DNA from: an archaeon
Lineage (GTDB): Archaea > Iainarchaeota > Iainarchaeia > Iainarchaeales > CSSED10-239
DNA: 19,482 nucleotides
Direction of reading: 5' to 3'
Assembly: GCA_035390665.1 (NCBI GenBank)
Contig: DAOOUC010000010.1
Coordinates: 1-19,482 of the forward strand
Part shown: in pieces, positions 1-15,664 of the stretch
Position numbering within the stretch: the stretch's first letter is position 1
Layout: each line of letters opens with the position of its first letter
The notes under the pieces: model-generated
Seen by the model: only the letters and a program-made list of their open reading frames with translations
Told to the model about the DNA's origin: nothing
Databases searched by the model: none
Made by a program: the position numbers and the translations under genes

Positions 1-248
1 AACCAAATATTTGAAATAAAATGATTACTTAATTTCTTAAATATCATATTAGAAATTAAAGTTAATGCAGATAACATAAAATAACCTACTGAGAATAAAA
101 CCAAACTTAACCCTATTGTTCCAATATTTAGTTCTAATGTATTAGGGGGTTCTAATTTTCCCATAAAAATAAATATTAAATACAAACCCACAATTAACAA
201 AATTACAGAAATAATCATTAACCATTTATCTACTTTCTTTGTATCCAT
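1..248 (-). CDS. Small integral membrane protein, 3' end cut by the window start (absent from the supplied ORF track)
   Basis: Minus-strand ATG at 248-246. Hand translation MDTKKVDKWLMIISVILLIVGLYLIFIFMGKLEPPNTLELNIGTIGLSLVLFSVGYFMLSALTLISNMIFKKLSNHFISNIW runs stop-free to base 1. It has two hydrophobic spans and lies on the same strand as the pilus-like genes upstream. Confidence 0.5.
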   Translation of the reverse strand, partial: MDTKKVDKWLMIISVILLIVGLYLIFIFMGKLEPPNTLELNIGTIGLSLVLFSVGYFMLSALTLISNMIFKKLSNHFISNIW

Positions 249-259
249 TTTTGTTTCAC

Positions 260-294
260 AAAAAAATAGAAGATATAACCTTTTAAAAGGTTAT
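260..294 (-). terminator. Hairpin plus oligo-T terminator downstream of the 167-aa membrane protein gene
   Basis: Perfect 20-nt palindrome ATAACCTTTTAAAAGGTTAT at 275-294. On the minus strand it is followed by a T7 run (plus-strand A7 at 260-266). It sits between the stop at 318 and the next minus-strand start at 248. Confidence 0.5.
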
Positions 295-317
295 TTATTT
301 TATTAGGTTTTTTGCGT

Positions 318-821
318 TTAAATTATTAGATGCACTGCATTAAATATGAAAATAATTAATGAAGGCATAACAAGCATTACTAATACATCCCATGTATTTA
401 ATGCATCAGGATTTTTCTTATATTCATCCCATAAATATGTGTGTGCTTTTGTTTGTTTCTTTAAATGTAATAAATACCAAAGCAAACTAAAAATTAATGC
501 TGAAATTACCCATAGTGTTATGATTGCAGTATATTTTTCTAAAGCTAAAAAGTATTTAGATGAAAATATCCATAGTATTGTTATTAATCCATAAGTAACT
601 AATACAGAGAATATGGCTTTAAATATTAACTTTGCTGTTCCTGTCTTAAATAATGTAACAATGTTATTGAACAACCACATTATTATGAAAAGAACAGTCA
701 TTAATAATAAAACTATAAATATAAATGTTAAAATAAAAGTTCCAAGAACAAAACCAAGAACTAAAATAATACCTGCTAATATTAAAAAAATAATTTTTGT
801 TAAAAGATTCATAAAAATCAC
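318..821 (-). CDS. Polytopic membrane protein, function unknown
   Basis: The 167-aa ORF is almost entirely hydrophobic helices (LILAGIILVLGFVLGTFILTFIFIVLLLMTVLFIIMWLF...). Position 821 is a GTG; the first ATG is at 812 (MNLLTK...). It is co-oriented with the pilus-like genes. No family recognised. Confidence 0.5.
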   Translation of the reverse strand: MIFMNLLTKIIFLILAGIILVLGFVLGTFILTFIFIVLLLMTVLFIIMWLFNNIVTLFKTGTAKLIFKAIFSVLVTYGLITILWIFSSKYFLALEKYTAIITLWVISALIFSLLWYLLHLKKQTKAHTYLWDEYKKNPDALNTWDVLVMLVMPSLIIFIFNAVHLII

Positions 822-865
822 ATTGTTACTTGAATATATTATTTAGATAAGAAGTATTTTTAATA

Positions 866-1423
866 TTAATTATTTGATTCTGTTGCATTTGAATTATTTT
901 CTGTGTATAATGAATTTTCTGGTTTTTTGTTAAAGAAATAAACACAATAGGTTTTACAGTTTTCAGAATTTGGTGCAAAGCTAATCGGGTCAAAAATTTC
1001 ATCAGGCATATCTCCACTAGCTGTCCAGAAATCACAATACGCCCAAACATTCATCTTTAAATTGTCTGCTTTAATTCTTAAATCTCCATTGTCTAAATAC
1101 TCTATCCCTTGACCACCAATTAATCCTATACAATTTTCGTCCATTCCAGAATAAATACTTATCTTTCTTTTTGTTATTGTGCCTGTAAGCATTAAATCTT
1201 CAATAATAAATGGAATCTTTGTACTTGTTCCTACACTTTTTGCTGCAGATTGTACTCCTTCTTTTAATTTTTGATCACTAATCAATATTGATTGCTTATT
1301 TGTAGATGCAATCATATTCATAATAATTACAAGAATTGCAGCAGCTAAAACAAAAGCAATTAATAATCTAAAAGACTCAGAACTTGAATCGTCTCCTCTT
1401 TGATTAAGTTTAAGTATTTTCAT
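866..1423 (-). CDS. Type IV pilin-like protein with an archaeal class III signal peptide
   Basis: The N-terminus MKILKLNQRG/DDSSSESFRLLIAFVLAAAILVIIMNMI is a short basic leader ending in RG, followed by a ~20-residue hydrophobic helix. The soluble remainder has 4 Cys. Its start overlaps the stop of the FlaJ/TadC-like gene by 1 nt (TAATG), implying translational coupling. Confidence 0.55.
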   Translation of the reverse strand: MKILKLNQRGDDSSSESFRLLIAFVLAAAILVIIMNMIASTNKQSILISDQKLKEGVQSAAKSVGTSTKIPFIIEDLMLTGTITKRKISIYSGMDENCIGLIGGQGIEYLDNGDLRIKADNLKMNVWAYCDFWTASGDMPDEIFDPISFAPNSENCKTYCVYFFNKKPENSLYTENNSNATESNN

Positions 1424-3642
1424 TATAAAACCATATTTGCTAAAATTACAGTCAATACAAACAAGATTGTAGCAACAGGAAGAGTTTGTGCAATTCTATA
1501 TTTTACAAGAATCATATTTTCTTGTTCAATCATTGTAGTAAAGAAAGTCATAATTAAAACAATTTCAATAACATAAATTGCAACAATAATAGTAAATGCT
1601 GTTGGTGTTGCAATCTTACTAATAACATCCATATTTAAAGAACTACCAAAAGAAGACATAGAAGTTATATCCATTCCCATGCCTGTAGTGTCTATTCCTT
1701 CTAAAGATGAAGCCATTTCTTCTAAAGCTCCACTACTTGCTACAGAAGACAAAGTAGAAATTACAACCTTATGAAGAGTTGTTGTTACACCAAGAATAAT
1801 TGGACCAATAAACTTAGCCATACTATTTAAAGTAGAAGTAATTTCTGCAATTAAAGTTGATAATAATCTGTTAATTTCATCTGTATTTCTTAATTGCATA
1901 GAATATGAAATTAAAGTTTTAGCTGCAACATTTACACCCATCTGAACAGAATCAACTACTAATCTCATAGCACTATTGATTATTGTTGAAGGGTTATTCT
2001 TTAAGGCACCATAATTTTTATCAAAAACTGCAGAATTAAGAGTTAAACCTAAGACTCTTATGTTATCAACAGTTTTACCAAAAATATCTTTAGCAACAGT
2101 TGATTTAGGAAGGAATTGACGAGTGTGATCAAAAGCATCTTCAATTGGCTTATTTTCTCCAAGCCTACTTGCAATAATATACAGTGCATCCTTAAATTCT
2201 TTTTCTTGAGTTTCAGTTTGAAGTTGAACTTTTCTTTTATAAACACTTGTTGCATAACACCAAAGAGAAATTGATAAAGAAATAGCTATAAACAAACTAA
2301 AAATAATATAATAAGGAATAATCATATTCTTTGGTTCTGCCCAAAAAGCAGCTTCTTCTGCACACATTACTTTAGGATTAAGTGCTTTTGCATTTAATTC
2401 TTCTGTGGTACATCCCCAAACAGGTGTTGTTGTATTGAATTCTTCTTCTAATATTTTTTCTTTTGTTACTCCTAATGTGGTTTGTAAAAAAATTCCAGAA
2501 AATATACCAACACCCATAATTATTACAATTAAAATAAAAACATTAATCTGAAAATCTTTAATCTTTAATGTATTCTTTTTTGGAAGACCTGGATAATTAT
2601 CAGGAATAACTGGTGGAACATATGTTGGAGGTCTTTTCTTTATAACACTTCTAGCATAAAAGAAACAACCAAGAGGGATAGCAATATTATAAATCATTAT
2701 TAGATAGATTGGTTGAGCCATTGCTGAACCAGAAAAAGCAGAACCAACTGGTAAAACAATAATTAACAATAATGGTAAAAGAATACCAAGATAAAACATA
2801 ACTGTTGCTGGTTGATTTAAAGTTCTTGCATAATCTTCTAATTTTCCTTTAACAGAAACCAAGGTATCATTCATGGTTTGATCTAATAATTGATATCTCT
2901 TACTTTCAGAAGACTCAATTACTGAAGATCTAATCTTCATTAATCCTTTTTTTAGTTCAACAGAGATGTCTCCCCACTTATAAGCTAATTCATCTAAGGC
3001 TTCAGCAACACTATTCTTTATTCCTACCTTTACTTCCCAAAGTAATTTTTTAAGATCTTCTGCAATCTTTCCATGTCCGTGTTCTGAAGCAAATTCTATT
3101 GCTTTTTCTAAATTCGGCACTAACTTCATAGACATTATCATATATCCTAAAATCTCTGGAACAAAAGTTAATGCTTTAATCTTTTCATCTTGAACTTTAT
3201 TTAATGGATATTTTTGAACAAAAATATATAAATAGAAAACTAAACCAATTGGAATTCCAAAAACTAATAAATATGTAAGCATTGAAGATCCCAATGCATT
3301 TGAAATTGTTTCACCAAATAAATAAAATATTGAACCTGAAATAACAACTGCTAAAAACAAACCAACAATTAAAACAAACTTTACGGTTGCAGAATATTCT
3401 TCTGCACTTAAATCCCAATCTAAGAAATCTATTGCTTTTTGATATTCATCGTTGTATGTTGCATTCTTTCCAAGACCTGAAAACTTTTCATTAATCTTTT
3501 TACAAAAAGTAACATAAGCATTTGATTTCTTTTTAGAAAGTTTATCAGAAGGTTTAGAAAAATCTCTTGAATCTATAGCTATAGAACTATAAATTTCTCC
3601 TGGATTTTCCTTTGAAACCTTATACTTATAGTTGTCTGGCAT
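1423..3642 (-). CDS. FlaJ/TadC-like (type II secretion system F family) pilus/archaellum assembly membrane protein
   Basis: 739 aa with two T2SSF-like cytoplasmic helical segments (EILGYMIMSMKLVPNLEKAIEFASEHGHGKIAEDLKKLLWEVKVGIKNSVAEALDELA... and EFKDALYIIASRLGENKPIEDAFDHTRQFLPKSTVAKDIFGKTVDNIRVLGLTLNSAV...). Each is followed by clusters of TM helices. ATG start at 3642. Confidence 0.7.
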   Translation of the reverse strand: MPDNYKYKVSKENPGEIYSSIAIDSRDFSKPSDKLSKKKSNAYVTFCKKINEKFSGLGKNATYNDEYQKAIDFLDWDLSAEEYSATVKFVLIVGLFLAVVISGSIFYLFGETISNALGSSMLTYLLVFGIPIGLVFYLYIFVQKYPLNKVQDEKIKALTFVPEILGYMIMSMKLVPNLEKAIEFASEHGHGKIAEDLKKLLWEVKVGIKNSVAEALDELAYKWGDISVELKKGLMKIRSSVIESSESKRYQLLDQTMNDTLVSVKGKLEDYARTLNQPATVMFYLGILLPLLLIIVLPVGSAFSGSAMAQPIYLIMIYNIAIPLGCFFYARSVIKKRPPTYVPPVIPDNYPGLPKKNTLKIKDFQINVFILIVIIMGVGIFSGIFLQTTLGVTKEKILEEEFNTTTPVWGCTTEELNAKALNPKVMCAEEAAFWAEPKNMIIPYYIIFSLFIAISLSISLWCYATSVYKRKVQLQTETQEKEFKDALYIIASRLGENKPIEDAFDHTRQFLPKSTVAKDIFGKTVDNIRVLGLTLNSAVFDKNYGALKNNPSTIINSAMRLVVDSVQMGVNVAAKTLISYSMQLRNTDEINRLLSTLIAEITSTLNSMAKFIGPIILGVTTTLHKVVISTLSSVASSGALEEMASSLEGIDTTGMGMDITSMSSFGSSLNMDVISKIATPTAFTIIVAIYVIEIVLIMTFFTTMIEQENMILVKYRIAQTLPVATILFVLTVILANMVL

Positions 3643-3756
3643 CTTTTATCTTGTGTTTTAGTATAATTAAAATATATTTATAAAAGAAAGAAAGATTTAA
3701 ATACATGTCCCTTTTCTATTTTTATATATTAAAATAAATTTAATAGGAGACAAAAA

Positions 3757-3948
3757 ATGAGTTTTAAAATAATACATGACAAAAACAAATGTGTGGGTTG
3801 CGGTGCTTGTGTTGCTGTATGCCCTGACAATTGGGAATATAAAGAAGACAAAGTTTTACCTAAAAAAACTAAAGTTGAAGAAATTGGTTGTAACCAAGTT
3901 GCAGCAGATACTTGCCCGGTTTCATGTATAAAGATTGAAAAAGAATGA
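3757..3948 (+). CDS. Small [4Fe-4S] ferredoxin
   Basis: 63 aa with CVGCGACVAVCP (CxxCxxCxxxCP) plus a distal C...CPVSC. Layout resembles short Pyrococcus-type single-cluster ferredoxins. A GGAG RBS precedes the ATG. Confidence 0.8.
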   Translation: MSFKIIHDKNKCVGCGACVAVCPDNWEYKEDKVLPKKTKVEEIGCNQVAADTCPVSCIKIEKE

Positions 3949-4811
3949 AATTAAATTTTGGAACTGCCGGTATTCCTGGGACATCTAATGGTCCAATACC
4001 TAAGATAAAAGATGCAACCGTTTCAGGAATACATCAAGTAGCTAGTTTTAATCTTGATGCTTTGGAGATTGAATTTGTTAGAGGAGTGTATCTTAAAACA
4101 AGTAACCCAGAACAACTAGAACTCATAAAAAAAACCTCAGAAGAAAAAAATGTTTCACTTAGCATTCATTGCCCTTATTATATTAATTTAAGTTCTCTTG
4201 ATTCTGAAATTATTAGAAATAGTATAGGTTATATTTCACAATCACTTATTGTTGGACAATTAATTGGCTCCAGGATTGCTTTATTTCACCCAGGCTATTT
4301 TCAAAAACAAGAAAGGGCAGAAGTTCTAGACACAATTTCAAAAGGAATAGACAAAATTATTGAAACTGTTGAAAAGAAAGGCAATCATAAAAGAATACAC
4401 ATAGGTTTAGAGCTAACCGGAAAAGAAACGCAAGTTGGTTCTTTAGAAGATATTTTTTATTTTTATGAAAAATATAAAGATTTAGGAGTATTACCTGTTA
4501 TTGACTTCTCACACCAACATGCTAGAAAAAATGGTTACTTTAGAGAGCAGAAAAACTTGAATTCTTTTTTTGAAAAACTAGATAGTTATCCAGATTATCT
4601 AAAGAACATGCATATGCACATGTCAGGAATCAATTACTCAGAGAAAGGAGAAAGAAATCATCTAATGTTTGAAGACAAAGCAAATGACTTTCCTTACAAG
4701 AAGATTTTAGAAAAACTAAAAGAAAGAAAAGCAGAAGGGACAATCATCTGTGAAAGTCCTATTCCATATGAGGATGCTCAATTACTAAAAAAAGAATATA
4801 CAAAATTATAA
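3945..4811 (+). CDS. nfo: Endonuclease IV family (AP endonuclease 2 / xylose-isomerase-like TIM barrel) protein
   Basis: The motif series matches Endo IV metal-binding strands: FGTAGIP, SIHCPYYINLSS, ALFHPG, GLELTG, IDFSHQHA, MHMHMSG, ICESP. The start overlaps the ferredoxin stop (ATGA). Confidence 0.7.
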   Translation: MKLNFGTAGIPGTSNGPIPKIKDATVSGIHQVASFNLDALEIEFVRGVYLKTSNPEQLELIKKTSEEKNVSLSIHCPYYINLSSLDSEIIRNSIGYISQSLIVGQLIGSRIALFHPGYFQKQERAEVLDTISKGIDKIIETVEKKGNHKRIHIGLELTGKETQVGSLEDIFYFYEKYKDLGVLPVIDFSHQHARKNGYFREQKNLNSFFEKLDSYPDYLKNMHMHMSGINYSEKGERNHLMFEDKANDFPYKKILEKLKERKAEGTIICESPIPYEDAQLLKKEYTKL

Positions 4812-5279
4812 AAGATCCCAGTCTTTTCCGCCTTTATCTTTTAATCTTTCTTTTACTGATTTTCCATCTTTATTTGCTAATCCGTGCATTGGTCTTGGTA
4901 AATTTGCAGGTTGACTTGATCTTTTCATAATATTTGACTGCTTACTTTCAAGTTCATCCATTTCATCTGGTTCTTCATCGTCATAGTTTCCAGAATCTAA
5001 AATCTCAATTTCATCAATATCATCATTATATGGATCTTCTTTTTTATTTCTAATAATTTCTGTATCTCTTCCACCAGAATTAAGAGTTGGTCTTGTACTG
5101 CTTGTTGCAGCAGCATATCTTTGACCGTCTTTTGATTTTTTCATAACATTTATTCTATCAATACTATCTTGATTAACAGGACCAGAATAACCACATTGTC
5201 TACATTTGTGTCCTCCTGTGCTTTGATCCATTCCTACATTTAAAGAATAACATTTAGGACAATATTTGTATAATACCAT
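4806..5279 (-). CDS. Zinc-ribbon protein with an acidic, low-complexity C-terminal half
   Basis: N-terminal CPKC...x18...CRQCG four-Cys ribbon, followed by a DDIDEIEILDSGNYDDEEPDEMDELE acidic tract. ATG at 5279. The 3' end overlaps nfo convergently by 6 nt. Confidence 0.6.
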   Translation of the reverse strand: MVLYKYCPKCYSLNVGMDQSTGGHKCRQCGYSGPVNQDSIDRINVMKKSKDGQRYAAATSSTRPTLNSGGRDTEIIRNKKEDPYNDDIDEIEILDSGNYDDEEPDEMDELESKQSNIMKRSSQPANLPRPMHGLANKDGKSVKERLKDKGGKDWDLL

Positions 5280-5401
5280 TTTTACTTCACCTTTTTCTCC
5301 ACAAAAATATTAAATATAATAAAATGATAAATACAAATGTTTAAAAGCATATTTTATTTATGTTTTATTAGATTATTTAAAAATAAAAGGAGAAAGATAA
5401 G

Positions 5402-6589
5402 ATGAGTTTTAATAAGAATGAAGTTGGAGTTGTTGCCTATGGTGTAAAAACAGGAATAATTACCCCAAAAGATAATATCATTGAAATAGTTAAACAAACA
5501 TTTAAAAAAAATCCTAAACTTTTAGAAAATGGAGACATTGTTTGTGTTAAAGAAGCAGTTACTGCAATTACTCAGAATAATTTCGTAAGTTTAGAAGATA
5601 TTAGAACAGATATAATAACTAAATTAAAAATAAAAGAAAACTCAACAATTGGTGTTGTTTTTCCAATAACTTCCAGAAATAGATTTTCTTTAATTCTAAG
5701 AGCAATCTCATCAACAGTTCCAAAAGGAAAAATAATAGTACAATTGTTGTTTCCATCCGATGAGCAAGGAAATCAAATAATTTCTGAAGATTTCTTAAAA
5801 AAGAAAAAAATAAAATTAGAAGATAAAATTACTTTAGAAAAAATTGGAAAAAATAGATTCATACATCCAGAGACTGGAATGGATTATATTAAATTCTATG
5901 AAGATTTAATAAAGAAAGAAGGAGCAAAATCTGAAATATTTTTATCAAATAACCCTGAACATATTCTACAATATAAACCAACAGGAGTAATTATCTCTAA
6001 TGTTCACGACAGAAACAAAATTTTAGAAAAAATTAAACCAAAGTTTAAAAACACAATTACTTTACAAGACATCTGTTCTGATAAAAAAAGAAAATCACAC
6101 TCAGAATATGGACTTTTAGGTTCAAACATACTTGATCCTGAAAAAGGAATAATTAAACTTCCACCAAGAGACTCAGACAAAGTTTGTCTAGAAATACAAA
6201 AAATGATAAAAACAACATTTAAAAAAAATGTAGAAGTAATGGTCTATGGAGATGGAGCATATAAAGATCCTGAAAGTGGAATATATGAACTTGCTGATCC
6301 TGTTTGTGCTTTTGGAGTAACTCCTGGAATTGAAAGCAACAGAAGAGTAGGGGTAAAAACAAAATATCTAATGCAAAAATACCTAAATGAAGGAAAAACT
6401 AAAGAAGAAATTCTAAAAGAGATAGAAAAAGAAAAGAAAAAAGTACTTTGCACAACAGACAAAGGAAATATGGCTTGTGAAGGAACAACACCAAGAAAAG
6501 TAAGAAACCTTGTTGCAAGTCTTGCTGATCTTGTGTCTGGTAGTGCAGATGCAAATACTCCTGTAGTTATTGTAAGAGGGTTTATTTAA
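5402..6589 (+). CDS. CofE-like (F420-0:gamma-glutamyl ligase family) protein, enlarged form
   Basis: The N-terminal [17 protein letters not shown]...[18 protein letters not shown], the central [12 protein letters not shown]...ADPVCAFG and the C-terminal [20 protein letters not shown] all parallel CofE motifs (GDDL...DGD.lvv..K..SKaEG; iitDt.Gr; l.mGe...g.PvvvvRG). AAGGAG RBS. Confidence 0.65.
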
Positions 6590-6643
6590 AATTTAAAATT
6601 CTCTTATTTTTTAACAAATATACAAAAAAACAAGAGTTTAGAA

Positions 6644-6651
6644 TTTATATA
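6644..6651 (+). promoter_or_regulatory. Candidate TATA box for a leaderless transcript of the GGDEF-like gene
   Basis: TTTATATA is centred ~26-27 nt upstream of the ATG at 6674 and no Shine-Dalgarno lies between them. This is typical archaeal leaderless geometry. Confidence 0.4.
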
Positions 6652-6673
6652 GTTCTTTAATCACATAATTATT

Positions 6674-7306
6674 ATGAATAATAAAATTTTAATAAAATTA
6701 AGTGTTGGAATTGGAAGAAATTTAGCAGAAGCAGAAGAAGCTTTAAAAATTGCAAAAACAAACAAAAACAAACATAAAAAATTTAATATAGAAATTTATA
6801 ATGGCCCAAAATTAAAATATACAAATATCATTCCGTCTGAAATTATTAATGCATACCTAAGACTTGAAAAAAAGTTATCTAATTCTCCTAAAGAACTTTT
6901 GGATTTAGAAATATTAAAAAAAGATCCAAAAACTAAACTTTTAAATAAATTAGGATATTACATAGAATTGCAAAAATTAGAACTTAAGAAAAAATATAAT
7001 AAAAGAAATAGATTTATTATTTTATTTGATGCAGATTCTATGCACCTTCTTAATAAAAAATATGGCTATGAAACTGTGGATAGATATCTAGAAGCAATTG
7101 GAAAAGCGCTCTCTGAAAACATAAGATATTCTAAAGACCGAAACGAAAAAGATTTATTAAAAATAAAAGATTTATTAAACAATAGAAAAAATGATGCTGC
7201 AGGAGATGAATTTATTATTGATCTCTCTTGTAATAAGAAATATTTAAAACAAATTGCTGAAAGGTATATTACTAATTGTTATGAATATCAGAAAAAATTA
7301 AAATGA
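6674..7306 (+). CDS. Minimal GGDEF-like nucleotide cyclase (AGDEF motif), apparently circularly permuted
   Basis: DPKTKLLNKLGY (cf. D.LTgL.NRr.f), FIILFDADSMHLLNKKYGYETVDRYLEAIGKAL (cf. lDiDhFK.iND.yGH..GD.vL..va..l) and NDAAGDEFIIDLS (cf. R.GGDEFa.ll). The N-terminal ILIKLSVGIGRNLAEAEEALKIAKTNKNKH resembles the normally C-terminal vtvSiGia...ADeALY.AK..GkN segment. Confidence 0.65.
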   Translation: MNNKILIKLSVGIGRNLAEAEEALKIAKTNKNKHKKFNIEIYNGPKLKYTNIIPSEIINAYLRLEKKLSNSPKELLDLEILKKDPKTKLLNKLGYYIELQKLELKKKYNKRNRFIILFDADSMHLLNKKYGYETVDRYLEAIGKALSENIRYSKDRNEKDLLKIKDLLNNRKNDAAGDEFIIDLSCNKKYLKQIAERYITNCYEYQKKLK

Positions 7307-8671
7307 TTTAATTGTTTTTTGTTTCTCTTTTTCTAAAATTCCTTCTGCTGCTATAACGCCTGTAATGGCTGCACCAATAATATTTCCTGAAACTCCTGCT
7401 CCATCTCCAGCCATATAAAGATTTTTTATATGTGTTTCTAAATATTTATTTGTTTTAATTTTTGTGGATCTAAATTTGACTTCAGGAGCATACAGAAATG
7501 TGGAATCTCCATCAAGGCCAGGAAGAATCTTATCAAGCATCTCTATTCCTTCAATTAAATTTTTTGTAATTCTGTATGGCAAAGCAAGACCAATATCTCC
7601 TGGAATTGCATCCTTTAAAGAAGGGGTAATATGAGCGTGCTGAAGTCTTGAATAAGTACTTCTTCTTCCAACTTTTAAATCTTTAAATCTTTGAACTATT
7701 GGTTTTCCACCACCAACTAATGTTGCACCTTGTGCTACAAAATTTGCATAAAGTCTTGTGTTTTCTAAAGGTTCTGTTAATTTTACTTCAGTTACTAAAG
7801 CAAAATTAGAATTCTTGCCATCTAAGTTATGATTGCTGTGCCCGTTAACACAAACAAAATCCTCATATTCTTCTGTTGCCACATATCCGTGAGGACAAGG
7901 ACAAAATGTTCTAACAACATCATCATATGTTTTAGAATACATCAAATAAACAGTTTCATACATTAATTCAGCCTGCTCCTCAATTAAAGCTGCAGGGAAT
8001 TCCACTCTTACTCCAACTTCAATTTTATCATACATTTTTTCAAGATTGTTTTTTTGTGAGATTTTTTCAATCCATGAAGAATTATATCTTCCTGGAGCAC
8101 AAATTACATATTTTGATTTAAGTTCTGCTCCATCAGCTAAAATTACTCCTTGAATTAAATTATCTTTAACCAACAAATCCAAAACTTCTGTATTTGGTAA
8201 AAGTTGTACATTTTTTTTAATTAAATGTTCTTGCAATTTATGAATTACTGCCGGTAGTTTATCTGTCCCAACATGAATTGTTTTTCTTATAAATAATTTT
8301 ATGTTGTGCTTTTGAGAAAGATCAACCAAATCTTGCGTTTTTTTAAGATCTTTTGGATAATATTCTGCAGGCACTCCAAATTCTAAAAATAATTTTTCCA
8401 CATAATCTAAATATTCTTGATATTCTGAGATTGTATAAAGATGAAACATCTTTTCGTGGCTTAAAACTGGAGTAAAATGAAGCTTTCCATCTGAAAATGT
8501 TCCAGCCCCACCAAAACCGGTCATAACATCTGTTTTTTGTCTGTTTTCTACAAGTTGTCCTTTATCAATAAGTAAGATTTTAAGTTTACTATTCTTAGAT
8601 AATTCATAAGCACTAAAAATTCCAGCAGGCCCTGCACCAACAATTATAATATCAAAAAAGTTATTATCCAT
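7298..8671 (-). CDS. FAD-dependent oxidoreductase (uncharacterised FAD-dependent dehydrogenase type)
   Basis: N-terminal dinucleotide fold DIIIVGAGPAGIFSAYEL and C-terminal MAGDGAGVSGNIIGAAITGVIAAEGI. I place the start at the ATG at 8671 (MDNNFFDIIIVG...), not the GTG at 8704 used by the track. Confidence 0.75.
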   Translation of the reverse strand: MDNNFFDIIIVGAGPAGIFSAYELSKNSKLKILLIDKGQLVENRQKTDVMTGFGGAGTFSDGKLHFTPVLSHEKMFHLYTISEYQEYLDYVEKLFLEFGVPAEYYPKDLKKTQDLVDLSQKHNIKLFIRKTIHVGTDKLPAVIHKLQEHLIKKNVQLLPNTEVLDLLVKDNLIQGVILADGAELKSKYVICAPGRYNSSWIEKISQKNNLEKMYDKIEVGVRVEFPAALIEEQAELMYETVYLMYSKTYDDVVRTFCPCPHGYVATEEYEDFVCVNGHSNHNLDGKNSNFALVTEVKLTEPLENTRLYANFVAQGATLVGGGKPIVQRFKDLKVGRRSTYSRLQHAHITPSLKDAIPGDIGLALPYRITKNLIEGIEMLDKILPGLDGDSTFLYAPEVKFRSTKIKTNKYLETHIKNLYMAGDGAGVSGNIIGAAITGVIAAEGILEKEKQKTIKSF

Positions 8672-8743
8672 AAGATTCACAATAATAATATAAAGACTAA
8701 ACACTTTAAAAGATTATTGTGTATCATTTATATTGATACAATT

Positions 8744-9247
8744 ATGGAACTAAAAATTAAACCAATATTTTTAGGAAAAACAAACAATTTCAAAAAAAAT
8801 CAAATAATAAACAATTATTATTGTTTGTATTTTCATAATGGAAAATCATTTCTTTATGCAAAAGAAAACAAATCTTTTATTGAATATCTTATTAATAAAA
8901 GTAATTCCACAGAAAAAGAAAAAATTACAAGACTATTAAATTCTGAAAAGTTTTATGAATTCTTAAATGAAATACCTAATCTCAAGAATTATTCTAAATT
9001 TTTAGAAATACATTACTTAAAAGACCTTAATTTAATAAATAAAATTAATGATTGCTTTCAAGATTGGCTTATTGGAACACCTAATCAAAAAATTAAAGCT
9101 TTAGATAAAATAAAGAAAGAATTAAAACAAGAAATCGTGATAAATTATTTATCTAAATTAAAAACAGAACAACCTAAATTAAGAGAATTAAAAAGAACAG
9201 AACCAAAAAAACGCAAATTAAGAAGAATATCTTCAAAAGCAAAATAA
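8744..9247 (+). CDS. Hypothetical protein with a basic C-terminal tail
   Basis: ORF with its first ATG at 8744 (MELKIKPIFLGK...). It ends in KLRELKRTEPKKRKLRRISSKAK. No family recognised. It is divergent from the FAD oxidoreductase gene. Confidence 0.45.
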   Translation: MELKIKPIFLGKTNNFKKNQIINNYYCLYFHNGKSFLYAKENKSFIEYLINKSNSTEKEKITRLLNSEKFYEFLNEIPNLKNYSKFLEIHYLKDLNLINKINDCFQDWLIGTPNQKIKALDKIKKELKQEIVINYLSKLKTEQPKLRELKRTEPKKRKLRRISSKAK

Positions 9248-10195
9248 TTAAATCAATTTAGAAAAATCAGAACTTATAAAACCACTTGCTTTTGGATGTC
9301 CGTTCCCTCCATATTTCTTAGCAATTTGGGAACAATCAATATTTTTTGATCTAAGGCTTATTTTATCAAAATCTTTCTGATCTTCTCCTTTGGCATAATA
9401 TCTATACCATACAATTATCATTTCTATATCTTTATAAAGTTCGGAATTAAAAATATATTCAGAAATATATCCTGCCTTAAATTGAGAATTAACAATAAAA
9501 CTTTTCACACCTTCAAATTCTATTGTTCTTCCTGTTGAAACATCATCTTTTACTTTTGTATTAATATAAGTATTCATTAATTTACCATATTCTTTAAAAA
9601 TTGGGAAACAATCTTTAAAATAATTATTATCAAACAATTTCAAAAACTCATTATTTATTTCAAAATCTCTATTTGTGTCTTTGTCATAAATCTGAAGATA
9701 TAAGAAATCTATATATTGTAAAACATCTTTAGAATCTGGCAATTGCCACGTCCAAATATCCATATCTTGAATATATTGTGAAAATAAAGATGGTTCTTTA
9801 TCAAAATATTTCCAAACTAAAACACTTGCAGCAGAGTTAATGTCTGTTAATCCTTTTATTTCTAAATCAAACATTTCAGAAATAATATTTTTGTGATGAT
9901 CTATCCAAATTAAATTTTCTTTAAAAACAGATAAAAATTTTGCCATAGTTTCTTTACTAAAACTATAGTCTACAATTACTACTTTTTCAAATTTATTTAT
10001 ATCAATATTATACTTTTTTAAAATCTCGAATATGTTATCCATTCCATAATGAACTTCATAAAAATAATAATATTTCCTTAATTCTTTATAATCTGGAATT
10101 GATTTAGATATTTTTTCTAAATAATCGTTATATGCAAATCCTAAAGCAGAAATTAATCCGTCAAGATCATTATGGTAGAAAATTATTGTTTTCAT
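9248..10195 (-). CDS. DHH/DHHA1 family phosphoesterase (NrnA-like)
   Basis: DHH motif I HNDLDGLISA, motif III WIDHHKN, and the DHHA1 signature GGNGHPKASGF (GGGH-type). 315 aa. ATG at 10195. Confidence 0.75.
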   Translation of the reverse strand: MKTIIFYHNDLDGLISALGFAYNDYLEKISKSIPDYKELRKYYYFYEVHYGMDNIFEILKKYNIDINKFEKVVIVDYSFSKETMAKFLSVFKENLIWIDHHKNIISEMFDLEIKGLTDINSAASVLVWKYFDKEPSLFSQYIQDMDIWTWQLPDSKDVLQYIDFLYLQIYDKDTNRDFEINNEFLKLFDNNYFKDCFPIFKEYGKLMNTYINTKVKDDVSTGRTIEFEGVKSFIVNSQFKAGYISEYIFNSELYKDIEMIIVWYRYYAKGEDQKDFDKISLRSKNIDCSQIAKKYGGNGHPKASGFISSDFSKLI

Positions 10196-10272
10196 GTGTA
10201 TATCTTTCCTTCATTAAAAAAGTCTCATTGATATATATTATAATCACATAAATATTTAAAAAAGGGATTTAA

Positions 10273-10824
10273 TTATTTATTTTTTTTATTAAAGTAAAAA
10301 ATAAATAAAATAAATAAACCTAATATTATTAAAGTTAAAATAATGGTGTTATAATTAAGAGTAGAAGTTGCAGCAGGAGAACTAATTGCTGAAACCATTG
10401 TGCTTTCTACAGAATCACTTGCAATAGTTCTTGCCATTTCTTGTTGTGCAAAATTCTTACTAGATTTCTGATTGATTCCACCAATTGTTGAAGTCATTGT
10501 TAAAAGTAAAGCAAAACCTATTACCCCAACTATTGTTAAAATTAATGCTAAAAATAACCTTGTCTCATTTGGTTTAAGTAATCGCTTTCCCTTAAATGTC
10601 AAAGAATAATATTTCCATTTTCTTAAAGATTCTTCTTTTTTTACTAACCCTGCCTTTGAAAGAACTTCAAGATGTTCTTTAATTGTTGGATTTGATAACT
10701 TTAATTCTATAGATAAATCAGAAAGAGTTTTCTTTCTTTTCTCTAAAGCTTTTAAAATATTTAATCTTGAATCAGAAGCAATTGCTTTTAATGTTTCTTT
10801 ATCTATAGTTATCTTATCTTCCAT
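10273..10824 (-). CDS. ArsR-family winged-helix regulator with C-terminal membrane anchors
   Basis: LKAIASDSRLNILKALEKRKKTLSDLSIELKLSNPTIKEHLEVLSKAGLVKK is a typical ArsR/SmtB HTH. It is followed by two hydrophobic helices (LFLALILTIVGVIGFALLL and IILTLIILGLFILFIFYF). Confidence 0.7.
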   Translation of the reverse strand: MEDKITIDKETLKAIASDSRLNILKALEKRKKTLSDLSIELKLSNPTIKEHLEVLSKAGLVKKEESLRKWKYYSLTFKGKRLLKPNETRLFLALILTIVGVIGFALLLTMTSTIGGINQKSSKNFAQQEMARTIASDSVESTMVSAISSPAATSTLNYNTIILTLIILGLFILFIFYFNKKNK

Positions 10825-10952
10825 AATAATATTTTAAATATTTGTTATTTTAAATCTTCCCTTTTATTTAGGTTTAAAACTACAAAACATCTATTTATAA
10901 TATTTTATAAGTAAGTTTAATATTGTACTTAAATTTTAAAAATAGACTAGAT

Positions 10953-12518
10953 ATGACTACATTTATTCAAACAGAAGAACAACAGAAAAAAGATTTTAAA
11001 TATTCTGTAATGGATGGTGTTTTTTGGACAATTATGACTTATTTAGGTGCAGTATTTTTAACCCCTTATCTTTTATCTCTTGGAGCAAATAGTTTTCAAA
11101 TTGGACTCACAACTTATGTCCCAACATTAATTGCATCAATAATTTGTTTTTTTTCTTATGATTTTTTAAAATACTTTAATTCAAAAAGAAGTTTCGTTGT
11201 ATTTTTTGTAATAATTCAAGCAACACTTTGGATTCCATTAGCTTTTGTTTATTTTTTTGCGACTGGTAGCACTGCAGTGTGGTTTGTTTTAATAATTTAT
11301 TTCTTAATTTCAATAATAGGGACAATACCCGGTCCAGTCTATGGAGATTGGATAGGAAAGGTTTTTAAAATCAAAGAAATTGGATTATATAATGCAAGAC
11401 GAAACATTATTTGTAATCTTGTAACAATATTGCCTTTATTTTTTGCAGGATCCATTTTAGATGCAGCATCTCATTCTAATACTCTTTTTATTTTTACAAT
11501 AATTTTTATATTTGCAGGAATATTTAGATTTATTTCAGCTATGTCTTTGAACAAGATGAGTATTACTGAGACAAAAGAAGAAATAAAACATGAAACACAC
11601 CAATCTAAAGGATTAATGCTTAATGCCTTTAGAGATGAAATAAAAAATAATAAAAATTATGTTTATTTTTTCGTGGTTGTTTTATTTTATTATTTTAGTT
11701 TATATGTTACTGCCCCTTATAATAGATTCTATTTACTTGAAATTGCAAAATTAAGTTATACTCAATATATATCTATTGAGATTGTTGCAATCCTTGGAGT
11801 AATTTTAACACTATTTTACTGGGGAACTGCAGTAGATAAATTTGGCGCAACAAGAGTTTTAAAAGCAACAATTTTCTTTTTACCACTTTATCCATTAACA
11901 TTAATTTTATTTTCTAAAAATTTTTATGTACTTATATCTCTTGTATTTATTGATGCAGTATTAACTGCTGGATTAGGTATTGCTCTAACATCCTATCTTT
12001 ATCAAAATATTAGAAAAAACCTAATTGCACACATGACTTTCTTAACCTTATTCCAATCTATTGCATTAACACTTGGTGCTTTAAGTGCAGCAGGAATAAA
12101 TTATTTATTAACAAAGAATCTTGGTTCTGAAACTAGAGCATTATTCTGGGTTTTTATAATTGGAATAGGTCTTAGATTTATTTCAGCAATATTAAGTCAA
12201 GGATTAAAGGATAATAATCCTGAAAAGACAAATGTATTAAAAGAAATAATTGTTTTTAAGCCAATAATTTATGGTGGTGGAAAATTAATGCAGATTTGGG
12301 GAGAAAAACAAAAAGAAATAACACACAATGTTGGACAACGTACCAAAAAGATACAATTACATCTTAAAAAAACAACCAAACAGATTAAAGGTGATTTTTC
12401 CTTAACTGCAAAAAAATTTGGAAAAGAACTAAATGATACAACAGAAGAAATAATACACACTACAAAAAAAGCAATAAAGAGAACTAAGAAATTTTTAGAC
12501 AAAAAAGATGATTTTTAA
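10953..12518 (+). CDS. MFS-type transporter with a ~90-aa lysine-rich cytoplasmic tail
   Basis: About 12 hydrophobic spans arranged in two halves around a charged central loop (ITETKEEIKHETHQSKG...). I start at the ATG at 10953, not the TTG at 10923. The family call rests on architecture only. Confidence 0.5.
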   Translation: MTTFIQTEEQQKKDFKYSVMDGVFWTIMTYLGAVFLTPYLLSLGANSFQIGLTTYVPTLIASIICFFSYDFLKYFNSKRSFVVFFVIIQATLWIPLAFVYFFATGSTAVWFVLIIYFLISIIGTIPGPVYGDWIGKVFKIKEIGLYNARRNIICNLVTILPLFFAGSILDAASHSNTLFIFTIIFIFAGIFRFISAMSLNKMSITETKEEIKHETHQSKGLMLNAFRDEIKNNKNYVYFFVVVLFYYFSLYVTAPYNRFYLLEIAKLSYTQYISIEIVAILGVILTLFYWGTAVDKFGATRVLKATIFFLPLYPLTLILFSKNFYVLISLVFIDAVLTAGLGIALTSYLYQNIRKNLIAHMTFLTLFQSIALTLGALSAAGINYLLTKNLGSETRALFWVFIIGIGLRFISAILSQGLKDNNPEKTNVLKEIIVFKPIIYGGGKLMQIWGEKQKEITHNVGQRTKKIQLHLKKTTKQIKGDFSLTAKKFGKELNDTTEEIIHTTKKAIKRTKKFLDKKDDF

Positions 12519-12551
12519 ATAATATGTTATATAATAATATAGTGAAGGTAT

Positions 12552-13415
12552 ATGTTTAAGAAAAAAATATTTCAAACAACAGAACACAATGTAAATAAGT
12601 TAATCTTAATTTTAGGTGTTTTTCTTCTTACAATAACTTCTCTAATTATGGCAAATACGAAAGGATGGATTACTTTAAATCCAGGAATACTTGCAACTAT
12701 AAAATTAATTTCTATTATACTCTGGACCTTCTTTATTGCTTCTGTTTTTATTAAATTTACACAAAATAAAGTACATAAATTATTTGACGAAAGCGTAGAT
12801 CTTGAGCAAAGAATACTATTAAGTAAATTTTATAATTTCTTTGTATATTTATTTGCAACTGCTTTTGTATTATGGAAGATGGGAGTTACCCTTGAAAATA
12901 TTACATTATTTGTTGGACTTATTGCTACAGGACTTGCTTTTGCCTTAAGAGAAATCCTTTTACCTTTCTTTGTTTGGTTTATGTTATTAACAAAAAGACC
13001 ATTTAGAATTGGAGATTATATTAAAATTGGAGACGATGAAGGTAGAGTAAAACATATTGGTACTTTTTATGTTTTTTTAGATCCTTTAAACACAGACTTA
13101 AATCAAACAATTAAAATACCTAATAAGATATTTTTAGAAAAACAAGTAATTAACTATGGAGGAATAAACCTTCCAATATTTTTAAAAATCCCTGTAACTG
13201 CTATGGATTTAAAAGACAGTGAAAAAAGAATTGAAGAAATAAAGAAAAATCTAATCAAAATATATCCTGAATATACCATCCATCCAAAACTTGTATCAGA
13301 CAAAGAATATGTATATCTATTATTTGATTTTACAGTATCAACTAAAGAAAACTACACAAAGATAAGACATAAACTTTATGAAGAAACATATAATTATTTT
13401 AAAGGGCCAAGGTAG
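12552..13415 (+). CDS. MscS-family mechanosensitive channel
   Basis: N-terminal TM helices are followed by the MscS signature region LLTKRPFRIGDYIKIGDDEGRVKHIGTFYVFLDP...IKIPNKIFLEKQVINY. Confidence 0.75.
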   Translation: MFKKKIFQTTEHNVNKLILILGVFLLTITSLIMANTKGWITLNPGILATIKLISIILWTFFIASVFIKFTQNKVHKLFDESVDLEQRILLSKFYNFFVYLFATAFVLWKMGVTLENITLFVGLIATGLAFALREILLPFFVWFMLLTKRPFRIGDYIKIGDDEGRVKHIGTFYVFLDPLNTDLNQTIKIPNKIFLEKQVINYGGINLPIFLKIPVTAMDLKDSEKRIEEIKKNLIKIYPEYTIHPKLVSDKEYVYLLFDFTVSTKENYTKIRHKLYEETYNYFKGPR

Positions 13416-13416
13416 A

Positions 13417-14328
13417 TTAAATTTCAAAAACAATTGGCTTTTTGATATCTCCACCTATCTTGTTCAATAACAAGATATTTTTATTTTTCTTCTTTGCCAT
13501 TTCTATTGCTAAATCTTGATAGGTTCTTCCTATGTGAGTTATTGGATTTTTACCATAATATGCTTCTAAAGTCATTGGTTTTGTTGGAGTAATTAATCCA
13601 TTTCTTCTGTTACCTCTACCTGTTGCTCCACTATCTCCCATCTCTAAAGATGTTCCTGTTTTTGTTATAAATTGTGCTTCTTTTGTGTCTCCAATATTAA
13701 TATATAAATTTTTTATTTTAAATTTTTGTTTTAATTCTTTTTCCAATTGTTTCTTATACTCAAAATATTCTTTTGTAGTTTTAAAAGAATCCAAGAATGC
13801 AAGAGCGATATACACTGATTTTTCTTTACCATCATAAGTAAACATAACTTTGTTGTCTGTTCCTATGTGCTTGCCTGTTTTATGAAGATTATCAATATAT
13901 TTACCTATATCTAAAACTAGTTTCTCGTTATTTGTTTCTTGATGACCAACAGCAAAACTTGTATCGTTTGCTTTTTTACATGCAAATATATCATTAAGAT
14001 CAGGGCTTCCTTGGTTTAGAAAATTATAAACTTTATATTTTAATCCGTTTTTTATTTCAAAATCTAAAGTTTCTTTAACTACAGATTCTAAAATTTTATC
14101 TATATTTTTTACTTTTGTATATTGCCCAGCAAAGACAATTTTTACCGGAGTTTTAAATTTTCCTTTTTCTATTTCTCCAGCACACACCATTGTTTTATCA
14201 ACATTATAGTGTTTCATTGTTCCATATTCTTTAAGTAAGGCCTTAGATAATTTTTCAGACAAATTATCTGCTATTGTATCTGGGTGGCCTATTCCTTTTC
14301 TTTCTATTACTTCTATTTTTGTTTTCAT
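13417..14328 (-). CDS. mat: Archaeal-type S-adenosylmethionine synthetase (methionine adenosyltransferase), compact form
   Basis: ERKGIGHPDTIADNLSE, ANDTSFAVGH and TGTSLEMGDSGATGRGNRRNGLITPTKPMTLEAYYGKNPITHIGRTY match archaeal MAT signature blocks (ERKGLGHPDS; ANDTSFGVG; TGTSAEMGDDG.VGRGNR.NGLITP.RPMS.EA..GKNP..HVGK.Y). Confidence 0.85.
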   Translation of the reverse strand: MKTKIEVIERKGIGHPDTIADNLSEKLSKALLKEYGTMKHYNVDKTMVCAGEIEKGKFKTPVKIVFAGQYTKVKNIDKILESVVKETLDFEIKNGLKYKVYNFLNQGSPDLNDIFACKKANDTSFAVGHQETNNEKLVLDIGKYIDNLHKTGKHIGTDNKVMFTYDGKEKSVYIALAFLDSFKTTKEYFEYKKQLEKELKQKFKIKNLYINIGDTKEAQFITKTGTSLEMGDSGATGRGNRRNGLITPTKPMTLEAYYGKNPITHIGRTYQDLAIEMAKKKNKNILLLNKIGGDIKKPIVFEI

Positions 14329-14351
14329 GTCAATTCTCCTTTGTTGCTTAT

Positions 14352-14408
14352 TAGTAACTAATTAGTGTTTGGAAATATTTAAAAAACCTTTCACTCATTA
14401 GTTACTAT
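14352..14408. promoter_or_regulatory. Imperfect inverted repeat, candidate operator in the divergent MAT / RHH promoter region
   Basis: TAGTAACTAATTAGTG (14352-14367) and CACTCATTAGTTACTA (14393-14408) are reverse complements with 1 mismatch. The 25-nt spacer contains ATATTTAAAAAA. A third TAGTAAC half-site lies at 14422-14428, just upstream of the RHH start. Confidence 0.45.
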
Positions 14409-14440
14409 TATAACACTATAATAGTAACGAGGAAAAGAAA

Positions 14441-14608
14441 ATGGTATCAGAAGCAAGAGTTAGTCCTTATTTTTCAAAGGACCAGGTGAAGATAATAGAC
14501 GGATTAGTAAACAAGATTGGTTGCTCGAGAGCAGATGTTGTTAAGCAACTTGTTCTAATAAAGCTAACAGAAATGGGATACTTTAATAAGGAAAAAGACC
14601 ACAAATAG
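14441..14608 (+). CDS. Ribbon-helix-helix (CopG/Arc-like) DNA-binding protein, 55 aa (below the ORF-track cutoff)
   Basis: Hand translation: MVSEARVSPYFSKDQVKIIDGLVNKIGCSRADVVKQLVLIKLTEMGYFNKEKDHK. It shows a beta-strand (RVSPYFS), helix (QVKIIDGLVNK), G-x-S/T-R turn and second helix, the RHH pattern. GAGG lies 8 nt upstream of the ATG. The GNAT gene follows after 10 nt. Confidence 0.65.
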   Translation: MVSEARVSPYFSKDQVKIIDGLVNKIGCSRADVVKQLVLIKLTEMGYFNKEKDHK

Positions 14609-14614
14609 TTGGAC
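14600..14614 (+). repeat. Direct repeat copy 1 (CACAAATAGTTGGAC) spanning the RHH stop codon
   Basis: Matches 15165-15179 at 14 of 15 positions. Both copies include the last two sense codons and the TAG stop of their gene. Confidence 0.6.
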
Positions 14615-14618
14615 GATT

Positions 14619-15173
14619 ATGAAAAAATATAACTATCTTAAAAAACCAATAATCACAGATAGATTGATACTTGTAAAACCATCTCTTGATTTTTGCAAAA
14701 GAAAATTAGAAATCTGGTCTAATCCAAAAATGACTAAATATAACGAAGAACACTTGACTTTAGCAGAAGTAAAGAAAAGAATGAAAGCAAATATAAAAGA
14801 TCAAGGAAAAACCGCAATTTCTTTCTATGCTCTTTTAAAAGAGAATAATTTTCTTATAGGATCTGCAGGACTTCATATCTTAAAGCACAACAACTCTGCA
14901 GAATTAGGTTACGGAATAGATGTAAACTATTGGGGAAAAGGCTATTGCTCCGAAATTGTGTCTGCTGTGCTTGATTTTACCTTCACTCAAACAGATTTAC
15001 ATAGAATCTGGGCCACACCAGCTGTAGAAAACAAAGCCTCTTGTAAGGTCTTAGAAAAATGCGGATTTAGAAAAGAAGCGATTTTAAGAGATTCAGCTTA
15101 CTATTATGGAAAATATTACAACGAAGCATATTATTCTATATTAAAAGAAGAATATTTAAAAATACACAATTAG
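14619..15173 (+). CDS. GNAT family N-acetyltransferase (RimJ/RimL-like)
   Basis: ITDRLILVKP..., LIGSAGLHIL...AELGYGIDVNYWGKGYCSEIVSAVLDFTF...LHRIWATPAVENKASCKVLEKCGFRKEAILRDS is the typical Acetyltransf_3-type core with the Q/RxxGxG/A-like WGKGY acetyl-CoA loop. Confidence 0.8.
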   Translation: MKKYNYLKKPIITDRLILVKPSLDFCKRKLEIWSNPKMTKYNEEHLTLAEVKKRMKANIKDQGKTAISFYALLKENNFLIGSAGLHILKHNNSAELGYGIDVNYWGKGYCSEIVSAVLDFTFTQTDLHRIWATPAVENKASCKVLEKCGFRKEAILRDSAYYYGKYYNEAYYSILKEEYLKIHN

Positions 15174-15179
15174 TTGGAC
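15165..15179 (+). repeat. Direct repeat copy 2 (CACAATTAGTTGGAC) spanning the GNAT stop codon
   Basis: Matches 14600-14614 at 14 of 15 positions. The two copies bracket the GNAT gene, 565 bp apart. Confidence 0.6.
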
Positions 15180-15215
15180 AAAAACCAATTATTATTTAAA
15201 CTTTTTTGTCTACTA
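15171..15215 (+). terminator. Hairpin with T6 run after the GNAT gene
   Basis: TAGT-TG-GACAAAAA (15171-15184) pairs with TTTTTGTC-T-ACTA (15203-15215) across an 18-nt loop. The T6 run (15202-15207) lies in the 3' arm. Confidence 0.4.
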
Positions 15216-15291
15216 TTATATAAACTATTTTTAGTTTAATTTAAGCCATTTTTTTAAATTTAGGGCTGATAAAGAAAAAAGAGGTAATTTC

Positions 15292-15579
15292 ATGAAAAAA
15301 AACACATTAAGCATAGCTATAGTATTTGCATTAATCTTAAGTTTAGGTATAATTAATGCATCTGAATTTAAAATAAAAAATAATAACGGAATAAGTACCA
15401 GATTTAAAACCACACAACCAACATTTTATGATATGGTAAGATGTACGTGCGGTGGCGAGACTTGTGGAAATTCTTTTGAAAGTCACCCTAATGCATCCAT
15501 TGGAGGACTAATAGTATATTGCTCACAACTGTGTTCTTGTAGAACAAAAGTCGGATTTCAATATGAAACAGAATATTAG
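15292..15579 (+). CDS. Small exported six-cysteine peptide (A)
   Basis: GAGGT RBS. The signal-like N-terminus is MKKNTLSIAIVFALILSLGIINASE. The mature part carries RCTCGGETCG and YCSQLCSCRT (6 Cys). A hairpin/T7 terminator follows. Confidence 0.6.
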   Translation: MKKNTLSIAIVFALILSLGIINASEFKIKNNNGISTRFKTTQPTFYDMVRCTCGGETCGNSFESHPNASIGGLIVYCSQLCSCRTKVGFQYETEY

Positions 15580-15592
15580 AACCCCAGAAAAT

Positions 15593-15625
15593 GTAGACAA
15601 TTAATTTTGTCTTACTACTTTTTTT
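15593..15625 (+). terminator. Hairpin plus T7 terminator after peptide A
   Basis: GTAGACAA (15593-15600), loop TTAATT, TTGTCTtAC (15607-15615), then TTTTTTT (15619-15625). Confidence 0.6.
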
Positions 15626-15664
15626 ATCTCCAAATAACCAATAAATAATTTTCGCACTGGACAG

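Follow-up and report, generated by a model that had tools for sequence, protein, structure and literature searches.

We analysed a window of 19,482 nucleotides (nt) from an archaeon of the Iainarchaeota (CSSED10-239; GenBank assembly GCA_035390665.1, contig DAOOUC010000010.1, positions 1 to 19,482 of the forward strand), with a G+C content of ~27%. At 6674..7306 on the + strand lies a complete gene, stop codon included, that begins with ATG and encodes 210 amino acids. An original prediction had described this open reading frame (ORF) as a minimal GGDEF-like cyclase whose fold is circularly permuted. The ORF stands in the ORF list as described, and the peptides quoted for it are all found in the translation: ILIKLSVGIGRNLAEAEEALKIAKTNKNKH at residues 5-34, DPKTKLLNKLGY at 84-95, FIILFDADSMHLLNKKYGYETVDRYL at 114-139 and NDAAGDEFIIDLS at 173-185. 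A database entry identical to the protein (100%; cluster P0001) carries the source name 'diguanylate cyclase [archaeon]'. Ratios of non-synonymous to synonymous substitution (dN/dS) against close homologues are 0.17-0.27, so the gene is under purifying selection. In our reading, its product is probably a nucleotide cyclase of the GGDEF (palm-fold) type that stands alone and has a circularly permuted domain. We found homology to GGDEF domains in swapped order, an element order and catalytic residues conserved across the family, and confident single-domain models.

The annotated N-terminus is firmly established as genuine by an in-frame stop and by homologues. The stop, a TAG at 6650-6652, eight codons upstream of the ATG, excludes a longer N-terminus, and in 98 homologues the N-terminal motif begins 6-33 residues after the start Met. 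The TAG falls in the region of a TATA-box-like motif, TTTATATA (6644..6651, +), which contains its start and is centred ~26 nt upstream of the ATG. The original prediction had argued for a true N-terminus from this motif and the non-coding DNA before it. An intergenic spacer of 84 nt lies between the ATG and the upstream F420-ligase-like gene. The N-terminus holds on the in-frame TAG and the homologous N-termini, but the TATA box is a weak argument because TTTATATA occurs 30 times, on both strands together, in this AT-rich window. Moreover, few of the window's other genes have a TATA-like motif at a similar distance from their start. A role for TTTATATA as promoter of the cyclase gene, and hence a leaderless or near-leaderless mRNA, is suggestive only.

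Canonical GGDEF domains run in the order alpha0-beta1-alpha1/2-beta2-beta3-alpha3-beta4-alpha4-beta5. We mapped these elements onto the window protein, all on the + strand. The alpha0 motif D.LTGL.NR (DPKTKLLNKLGY, residues 84-95, 6923..6958) is placed by Pfam and hhalign alignments. Beta1 with its next loop and helix (residues 113-136, 7010..7081) holds D119, H124, N127 and D136, and is placed by hhalign and conservation. A variable, family-specific insertion follows between alpha2 and beta2 (residues 148-167, 7115..7174). Its length differs across the family, the Pfam GGDEF alignment ends at residue 152, and the structure model is of low confidence there: blocks 151-170 score 54-74 in the predicted local distance difference test (pLDDT). 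The beta2-beta3 hairpin (residues 168-185, 7175..7228; hhalign and conservation) carries an invariant R171 and the signature, which is AGDEF and not GGDEF (A176-F180, nt 7199-7213), as the original prediction had it. Helix alpha3 (residues 188-207, 7235..7294), with family-specific conserved R197, Y203 and Q206, is the final element, and the chain stops at the point where canonical domains go on to beta4.

Equivalents of beta4-alpha4-beta5 stand instead at the N-terminus, in a module of residues 4-42 (6683..6799) that is supported by hhalign, re-joining and shuffle tests, conservation and a pLDDT of ~95. Within this module, strand 9-14 (LSVGIG) is the counterpart of the GGDEF beta4 'SxGxA' strand, helix 17-29 (EAEEALKIAK) that of the alpha4 'AD.ALY.AK' helix, with Lys28 corresponding to PleD Lys442, and strand 38-41 (NIEI) that of beta5. 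A linker of ~40 residues separates the module from alpha0. It contains two helices assigned by DSSP (55-70 and 72-80; residues 55-80, 6836..6913) that lead from beta5 back to alpha0 and match the helical 'stalk' that stands ahead of the GGDEF domain in canonical cyclases. From position 57-64 on, the native-order family profile can be aligned with the stalks of SiaD (7e6g) and Dcsbis (4zmm, 4zmu), and Foldseek aligned 147-165 columns with stalk-bearing cyclases.

Standard profiles recognise the two parts of this domain very unequally. In native order, residues 83-152 match Pfam PF00990 (GGDEF) with 33.5 bits (E 4.5e-8), above the gathering score of 23.8, and the match spans only positions 3-72 of the profile's 161. 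The C-terminal end of the palm profile of mCpol, a minimal CRISPR-polymerase-like enzyme (positions 83-109 of 114), falls on residues 7-33 with an E-value of 0.0033, below threshold (18.2 against 26.4 for Pfam PF18182, and 16.8 against 40 for NCBIfam NF033576). The NCBIfam picture agrees with that from Pfam, and a Pfam scan matched no other family to residues 1-74. We restored the canonical order by placing residues 79-210 before residues 1-49. This re-joined sequence scored 42.9 bits on Pfam GGDEF, in two stretches, against 34.4 for the native sequence. Both the mCpol profile (38-109 of 114) and the GdpP-type GGDEF profile (47-105 of 126) ran collinearly across the artificial junction, with mCpol reaching 21.9 bits (E 0.00025), still under threshold.

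Using hhalign, we aligned a family profile of 74 sequences with a canonical GGDEF profile built from 18 domains (178 positions). The core alone scored 124.7 over canonical positions 13-123, and the re-joined profile 143.6 over positions 13-169. Appending the reversed module (125.1, positions 13-127) or the linker segment (125.5, positions 13-128) left the score essentially flat. Column shuffles of the module, 159 in number, averaged 125.6 (standard deviation 1.2, maximum 133.9), and none attained the real score (0/159; z ~14.5). In native order, hhalign also returned secondary matches: residues 7-13 fall on canonical positions 134-140, the SxG strand, and residues 17-37 on positions 154-174, the AD.ALY.AK helix.

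The effect extends to individual proteins and to a solved structure. Scored with a canonical hidden Markov model, 97 of 99 family members improve on re-joining, and the average rise is 6.5 bits, against +0.3 bits for a reversed and +0.5 bits for a shuffled module (paired Wilcoxon p = 2e-17, which, as the sequences are related, is not an independent-sample probability). The re-joined family profile aligns with the cyclase 5m3c_A in one collinear stretch, 4-160 to 4-158 (E 4.5e-9), that includes the pairs klsvGiG/SASVGIA and AeaAlkeAkk/ADAAMYRAKSRGR; the native-order profile aligns over 89-159 only (E 3.1e-6). The swapped-order likeness to GGDEF is thus far beyond chance. Profile, shuffle, per-member and 5m3c_A tests all agree with the circular permutation proposed originally, in which the C-terminal strand-helix(-strand) of GGDEF sits at the N-terminus. 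A two-segment alignment in swapped order had been suggested as a check; the N-terminal segment gave a sub-threshold Pfam match (to mCpol) and weak secondary matches in hhalign, and the predicted match of residues 1-35 to the GGDEF C-terminal segment is borne out by the rise in score over the core. None of the three outcomes named beforehand as refuting was observed; for the second, an N-terminal strand outside the palm sheet, the evidence is indirect.

Three homologue searches yielded ~100 proteins, all of 196-279 amino acids, and an alignment-based locus search returned five GTDB loci. The edge of the family is sharp: E-values run up to 1.7e-37, and the next is 4.9e-6. Wherever source names are given, they are DPANN or plain archaeal (Pacearchaeota, Woesearchaeota, Nanoarchaeota, Nanoarchaeia or 'archaeon'). 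Residues were counted in an alignment of 99 family sequences. In every one of these, beta4-alpha4-beta5 precedes alpha0, so that the permuted order is conserved among homologues, which the original prediction had proposed to check, and none has the contiguous canonical order. Chains end 0-44 residues (median 7) past alpha3. Ten residues are invariant (G12, G14, T87, G94, D119, N127, G143, R171, D178 and E179), D84 and G177 are each present in 98/99, A27 in 94/99 and K28 in 92/99. More variable positions are H124 (80/99, with Lys in 18), A176 (73/99, with Gly in 11) and D136 (70/99, with Thr in 16, Ser in 8 and Asn in 5).

Two further features concern the family's genomic setting. In close relatives syntenic with the window there are tandem paralogues, 53-56% identical, at L001:7211-7861 and 8001-8660 and at L002:2202-2867 and 3007-3666. 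Both paralogues share the permuted layout in each locus, and the window holds one copy only. A divergent homologue, P0055 (L011 and L012:269-5228), adjoins genes for a phage-type integrase, a TrbC/type IV secretion system (T4SS) pilin and a reverse transcriptase (RVT_1). At least one family copy is therefore next to a mobile-element-like region.

We predicted structures for two members. The AlphaFold model of the window protein, with the family alignment as input, has a pLDDT of 87.7 and a predicted template modelling score (pTM) of 0.85, with pLDDT ~95 over residues 11-30. Its strands span residues 9-14, 38-41, 113-120, 168-171 and 179-185, and its helices residues 17-29, 55-70, 72-80, 92-104, 123-130, 132-147 and 188-207. 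As modelled, these five strands and helices make up the GGDEF complement in rotated order, and the DSSP helix 188-207 agrees with the earlier expectation of a single helix after the hairpin before the chain ends. Top Foldseek matches in the PDB were all diguanylate cyclase GGDEF domains. Alignments with isolated domains covered ~120-130 columns at ~3-3.7 Å, with target-normalised TM-scores of ~0.5-0.56; such partial alignments would be expected of a sequential aligner if the last third of the domain is placed elsewhere in the chain. P0055, at ~25% identity and with no Pfam annotation, was modelled with the same element order (pLDDT 86.6, pTM 0.84) and gave the same partial GGDEF matches. Both AlphaFold models are confident predicted single domains.

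These data suggest how the permuted chain might work. It would run from beta4-alpha4-beta5 (4-42) through the ~40-residue linker to alpha0 through alpha3 (83-207), where it ends. The N-terminal strand would slot in beside beta1 and finish the palm sheet, and the relocated helix would supply Lys28 and a basic residue one turn on to hold the beta- and gamma-phosphates of GTP. Asp119 with Asp178/Glu179 would bind Mg2+, and Asn127 with Asp136 would read the guanine. Two GTP-loaded protomers, meeting perhaps through linker helices 55-80, would then form cyclic di-GMP (c-di-GMP); catalysis by diguanylate cyclases requires dimerisation (PMC7825114). As the protein lacks both a sensor domain and an RxxD inhibitory site, its output would depend mainly on how strongly the gene is expressed, making the enzyme an unregulated c-di-GMP synthase. 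As to origin, we speculate that two GGDEF units were duplicated or fused and that both outer ends were then lost.

Other explanations can be ranked by the weight that remains to them: completion of the palm in trans, a receptor without activity, a conflict enzyme like mCpol and an N-terminal likeness due to chance. The first keeps the permuted order and has beta4-alpha4-beta5 insert into the core of a partner, as a domain-swapped dimer. Folding would then be coupled to the dimerisation needed for catalysis, a dependence that fits enzymes described as acting as dimers (PMC7825114). The 40-residue linker is long enough for such an exchange, and monomer prediction cannot tell cis from trans. We nevertheless consider this arrangement unlikely, as the monomer models (pTM 0.84-0.85, module pLDDT ~95) suggest a self-contained fold.

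Residues for metal, base and phosphate vary little across the family, Lys28 of the moved helix included. Taking the PleD residue list (PMC6629876) as reference, D119, H124, N127 and D136 are spaced at +5, +8 and +17, the same spacing as Asp327, Lys332, Asn335 and Asp344. The metal-binding Asp equivalent D119 (Asp327) is present, the guanine-reading N127 (Asn335) and D136 (Asp344) are intact, and AGDEF keeps the acidic pair of the signature as D178 and E179. K28 on the relocated helix aligns with Lys442; the Arg446 position (+4) is N32, and a Lys stands at +3 (K31; Lys in 60/99). There are departures too. The Lys332 position is occupied by His124, and a three-residue insertion separates the invariant Arg171 from AGDEF.

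Such departures could indicate an inactive, degenerate GGDEF that serves as a nucleotide-binding receptor or adaptor. In favour are a signature that reads AGDEF and not GGDEF, a His where Lys332 would stand and the lack of any obvious dimerisation or sensor domain, and the AGDEF domain of NbdA has been described as degenerate (bioRxiv 10.64898/2026.03.20.713172). Several observations make this improbable. The metal ligands, base-reading residues, conserved Arg and D-E-F of the signature were called invariant in the 99 sequences (with D136 itself in 70/99). None of the 99 members has an RxxD inhibitory site (I-site) at the canonical spacing, five residues before the signature, which is the site that receptor-type GGDEF domains use. 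Finally, the cyclase VCA0965 of Vibrio cholerae is active with AGDEF as its signature (PMC3974145). VCA0965 shares the Ala at the first signature position with the window protein and presumably has the canonical domain order.

For a catalytically active permuted cyclase, c-di-GMP is the most likely product of the window protein, judging from its sequence, because both residues that read guanine, Asn and Asp, are intact; GTP specificity is predicted from Asp136. The family is not uniform at this position. Thr, Ser or Asn occupies the residue 136 column (nt 7079-7081) in 29/99 members, mostly in a 'KAGIG' subfamily in which N91 is also replaced by Thr and D121 by Asn, and all of these members retain the Asp of xGDEF. 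Hypr GGDEF enzymes, which make cyclic GMP-AMP (cGAMP), offer a precedent: the natural variants with Ser or Thr have only GGD(E)F as signature (PMC6456294). The family variants resemble the Hypr enzyme GacA at the Asp344/Ser348 position, and they might use ATP as well as GTP. GacA itself has an N-terminal receiver domain and canonical order (PMC6456294); the window protein has Asp136 and neither of these.

The original prediction had also linked the protein to mCpol enzymes of conflict systems, with a product that need not be c-di-GMP. Here, a minimal palm polymerase of a defence system would make another signal for a linked effector. The protein is stand-alone and sensor-less, as mCpol is, the profile matches in native and re-joined order are weak but present, and the divergent P0055 lies beside integrase, T4SS pilin and reverse transcriptase genes. 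Like Cas10, mCpol belongs to the same palm superfamily, and it is the C-terminal end of its profile that the module matches. Our results speak against this link. Scores for mCpol stay below the gathering threshold and those for GGDEF above it, the alpha0 motif D.LTGL.N and base-reading residues are of GGDEF type, and the structural neighbours are all diguanylate cyclases. PADLOC returned no match, and no linked effector or CRISPR context accompanies the gene. Across the window and seven other contexts, we found no gene neighbour conserved across lineages; the seven are housekeeping neighbourhoods, and with no conserved partner, a defence-operon role is unlikely. Altogether, we regard an mCpol-like function as very improbable.

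Equally hard to sustain, and already largely refuted, is the idea of a C-terminally truncated GGDEF fused to an unrelated small domain whose likeness over residues 5-34 arose by chance or convergence: the individually weak native-order matches (hhalign P 0.02-0.06, E 0.003 for the module alone, and the sub-threshold Pfam mCpol hit) do weigh against a permutation, but the shuffle, reversal and linker controls, the gain in nearly all members, the collinear 5m3c_A alignment, the conserved phosphate-binding Lys and SxGxG strand, and the lack of any other Pfam family on residues 1-74 leave it scant room.

We compared the permuted cyclase with known systems. Canonical GGDEF cyclases (PF00990; PleD, WspR, T. 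maritima 4urg and PA0575 5m3c) are its best matches in sequence and structure. Common to both are the D.LTGL.N alpha0, the metal-binding Asp of beta1, guanine-reading Asn and Asp at identical spacing, the xGDEF hairpin, the SxGx(A/G) strand and an A..AL..AK helix with its phosphate-binding Lys. Unlike canonical enzymes, the permuted proteins form a DPANN-only family with beta4-alpha4-beta5 first, no sensor or receiver domain, no I-site, His for Lys332 in most members, three extra residues ahead of the signature and a short loop between beta4 and alpha4. Two Pacearchaeota genomes with a permuted member also encode a canonical GAF-GGDEF protein of 342 amino acids (L003:12590-13618, -; L013:10785-11813, -), 4-5 kb from the permuted gene. 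This protein has the canonical order, an N-terminal GAF sensor, a GGEEF signature and complete motifs (DALTGLFNKR, DLDFFKHYND..GD, RYGGEEF and SVGVG..ALYKAKQSGRN), and these genes point to sensor-regulated c-di-GMP synthesis in DPANN archaea. We considered whether the permuted family derives from these co-resident genes and rejected this origin: at ~30% identity to the permuted core, they are no closer to it than bacterial domains are.

GGDEF proteins and c-di-GMP have been reported as nearly absent from archaea, or as unconfirmed on archaeal contigs (PMC5847659, PMC8646023, PMC10086821), and the rarity assumed in the original prediction agrees with the first two of these sources. Our searches of the open literature turned up no permuted GGDEF domain or diguanylate cyclase, and circular permutation appeared there in unrelated uses only (GTPases, the Cas10 HD domain, methylases and biosensors). 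As an enzyme class this is not new, because public records already name the window protein 'diguanylate cyclase' or 'GGDEF domain-containing'. The novelty lies in the topology, in its conservation throughout the family and in its confinement to DPANN archaea. We see it as a serious possibility, advanced tentatively, that no natural circular permutation of a GGDEF/cyclase palm had been recognised before this one, and that the family's members are DPANN-specific constitutive cyclic-dinucleotide synthases making c-di-GMP where Asp136 is present and possibly cGAMP or mixed products in the ~30% with Thr, Ser or Asn.

If this holds, ultra-small, host-dependent archaea would have cyclic-dinucleotide signalling of their own, next to the canonical GAF-GGDEF proteins that the same genomes encode. 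Many independent contigs have the permuted gene amid archaeal housekeeping genes, and some of these genomes also carry the GAF-GGDEF gene, which makes such signalling in DPANN archaea directly testable. For fold evolution, it would mean that the active site tolerates the phosphate-binding helix at the other end of the chain, and the permutation marks a position at which the chain can be opened, useful for engineered sensor-cyclase fusions. There is also a consequence for annotation. Standard profiles catch only half of the domain. Close members bear the label 'diguanylate cyclase', and many divergent members, with no Pfam match, are called hypothetical; archaeal GGDEF censuses therefore undercount.

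The surroundings of the cyclase gene in the window are those of a housekeeping region. Its neighbours encode an AP-endonuclease-2 TIM barrel, an F420-ligase-like protein, a flavin adenine dinucleotide (FAD)-dependent protein, a weak DHH/NrnA-like protein, an ArsR regulator, a major facilitator superfamily (MFS) transporter and an MscS channel, and the window also encodes an archaeal-type S-adenosylmethionine (AdoMet) synthetase and a TFS-like gene. Scans of the window for tRNAs and Rfam families returned nothing. Close relatives are syntenic with the window, and distant members lie in unrelated neighbourhoods. Downstream, the cyclase gene runs into the convergent FAD-dependent gene (7298-8704, -): their 3' ends share 9 nt (7298-7306), which leaves no space for a terminator between them.

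Several neighbouring genes have features of their own. NrnA-type enzymes degrade short oligoribonucleotides, pGpG included. A gene at 9248-10195 (-), ~2 kb from the cyclase gene, encodes 314 amino acids with weak similarity to DHH in its N-terminal part and to NrnA-like DHHA1 in its C-terminal part, together with a weak match to PDB 3dev; L001 and L002 each have a similar-sized gene at the corresponding position. Upstream of the cyclase, the 395-amino-acid F420-0:gamma-glutamyl-ligase-like protein (5402-6589, +) stretches a 218-position Pfam profile over residues 14-393, which implies large insertions, and equivalog models cover only its last 33 residues. An ORF of 739 amino acids at 1423-3642 (-) has no Pfam or NCBIfam match, and its size and position are kept in L001 (741 amino acids). 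Elsewhere in the window, a PIN-domain ORF (17163-17741, -) overlaps an unannotated ORF of 119 amino acids on the opposite strand (16889-17248, +), and of the overlapping parts at most one is likely to be a real coding sequence.

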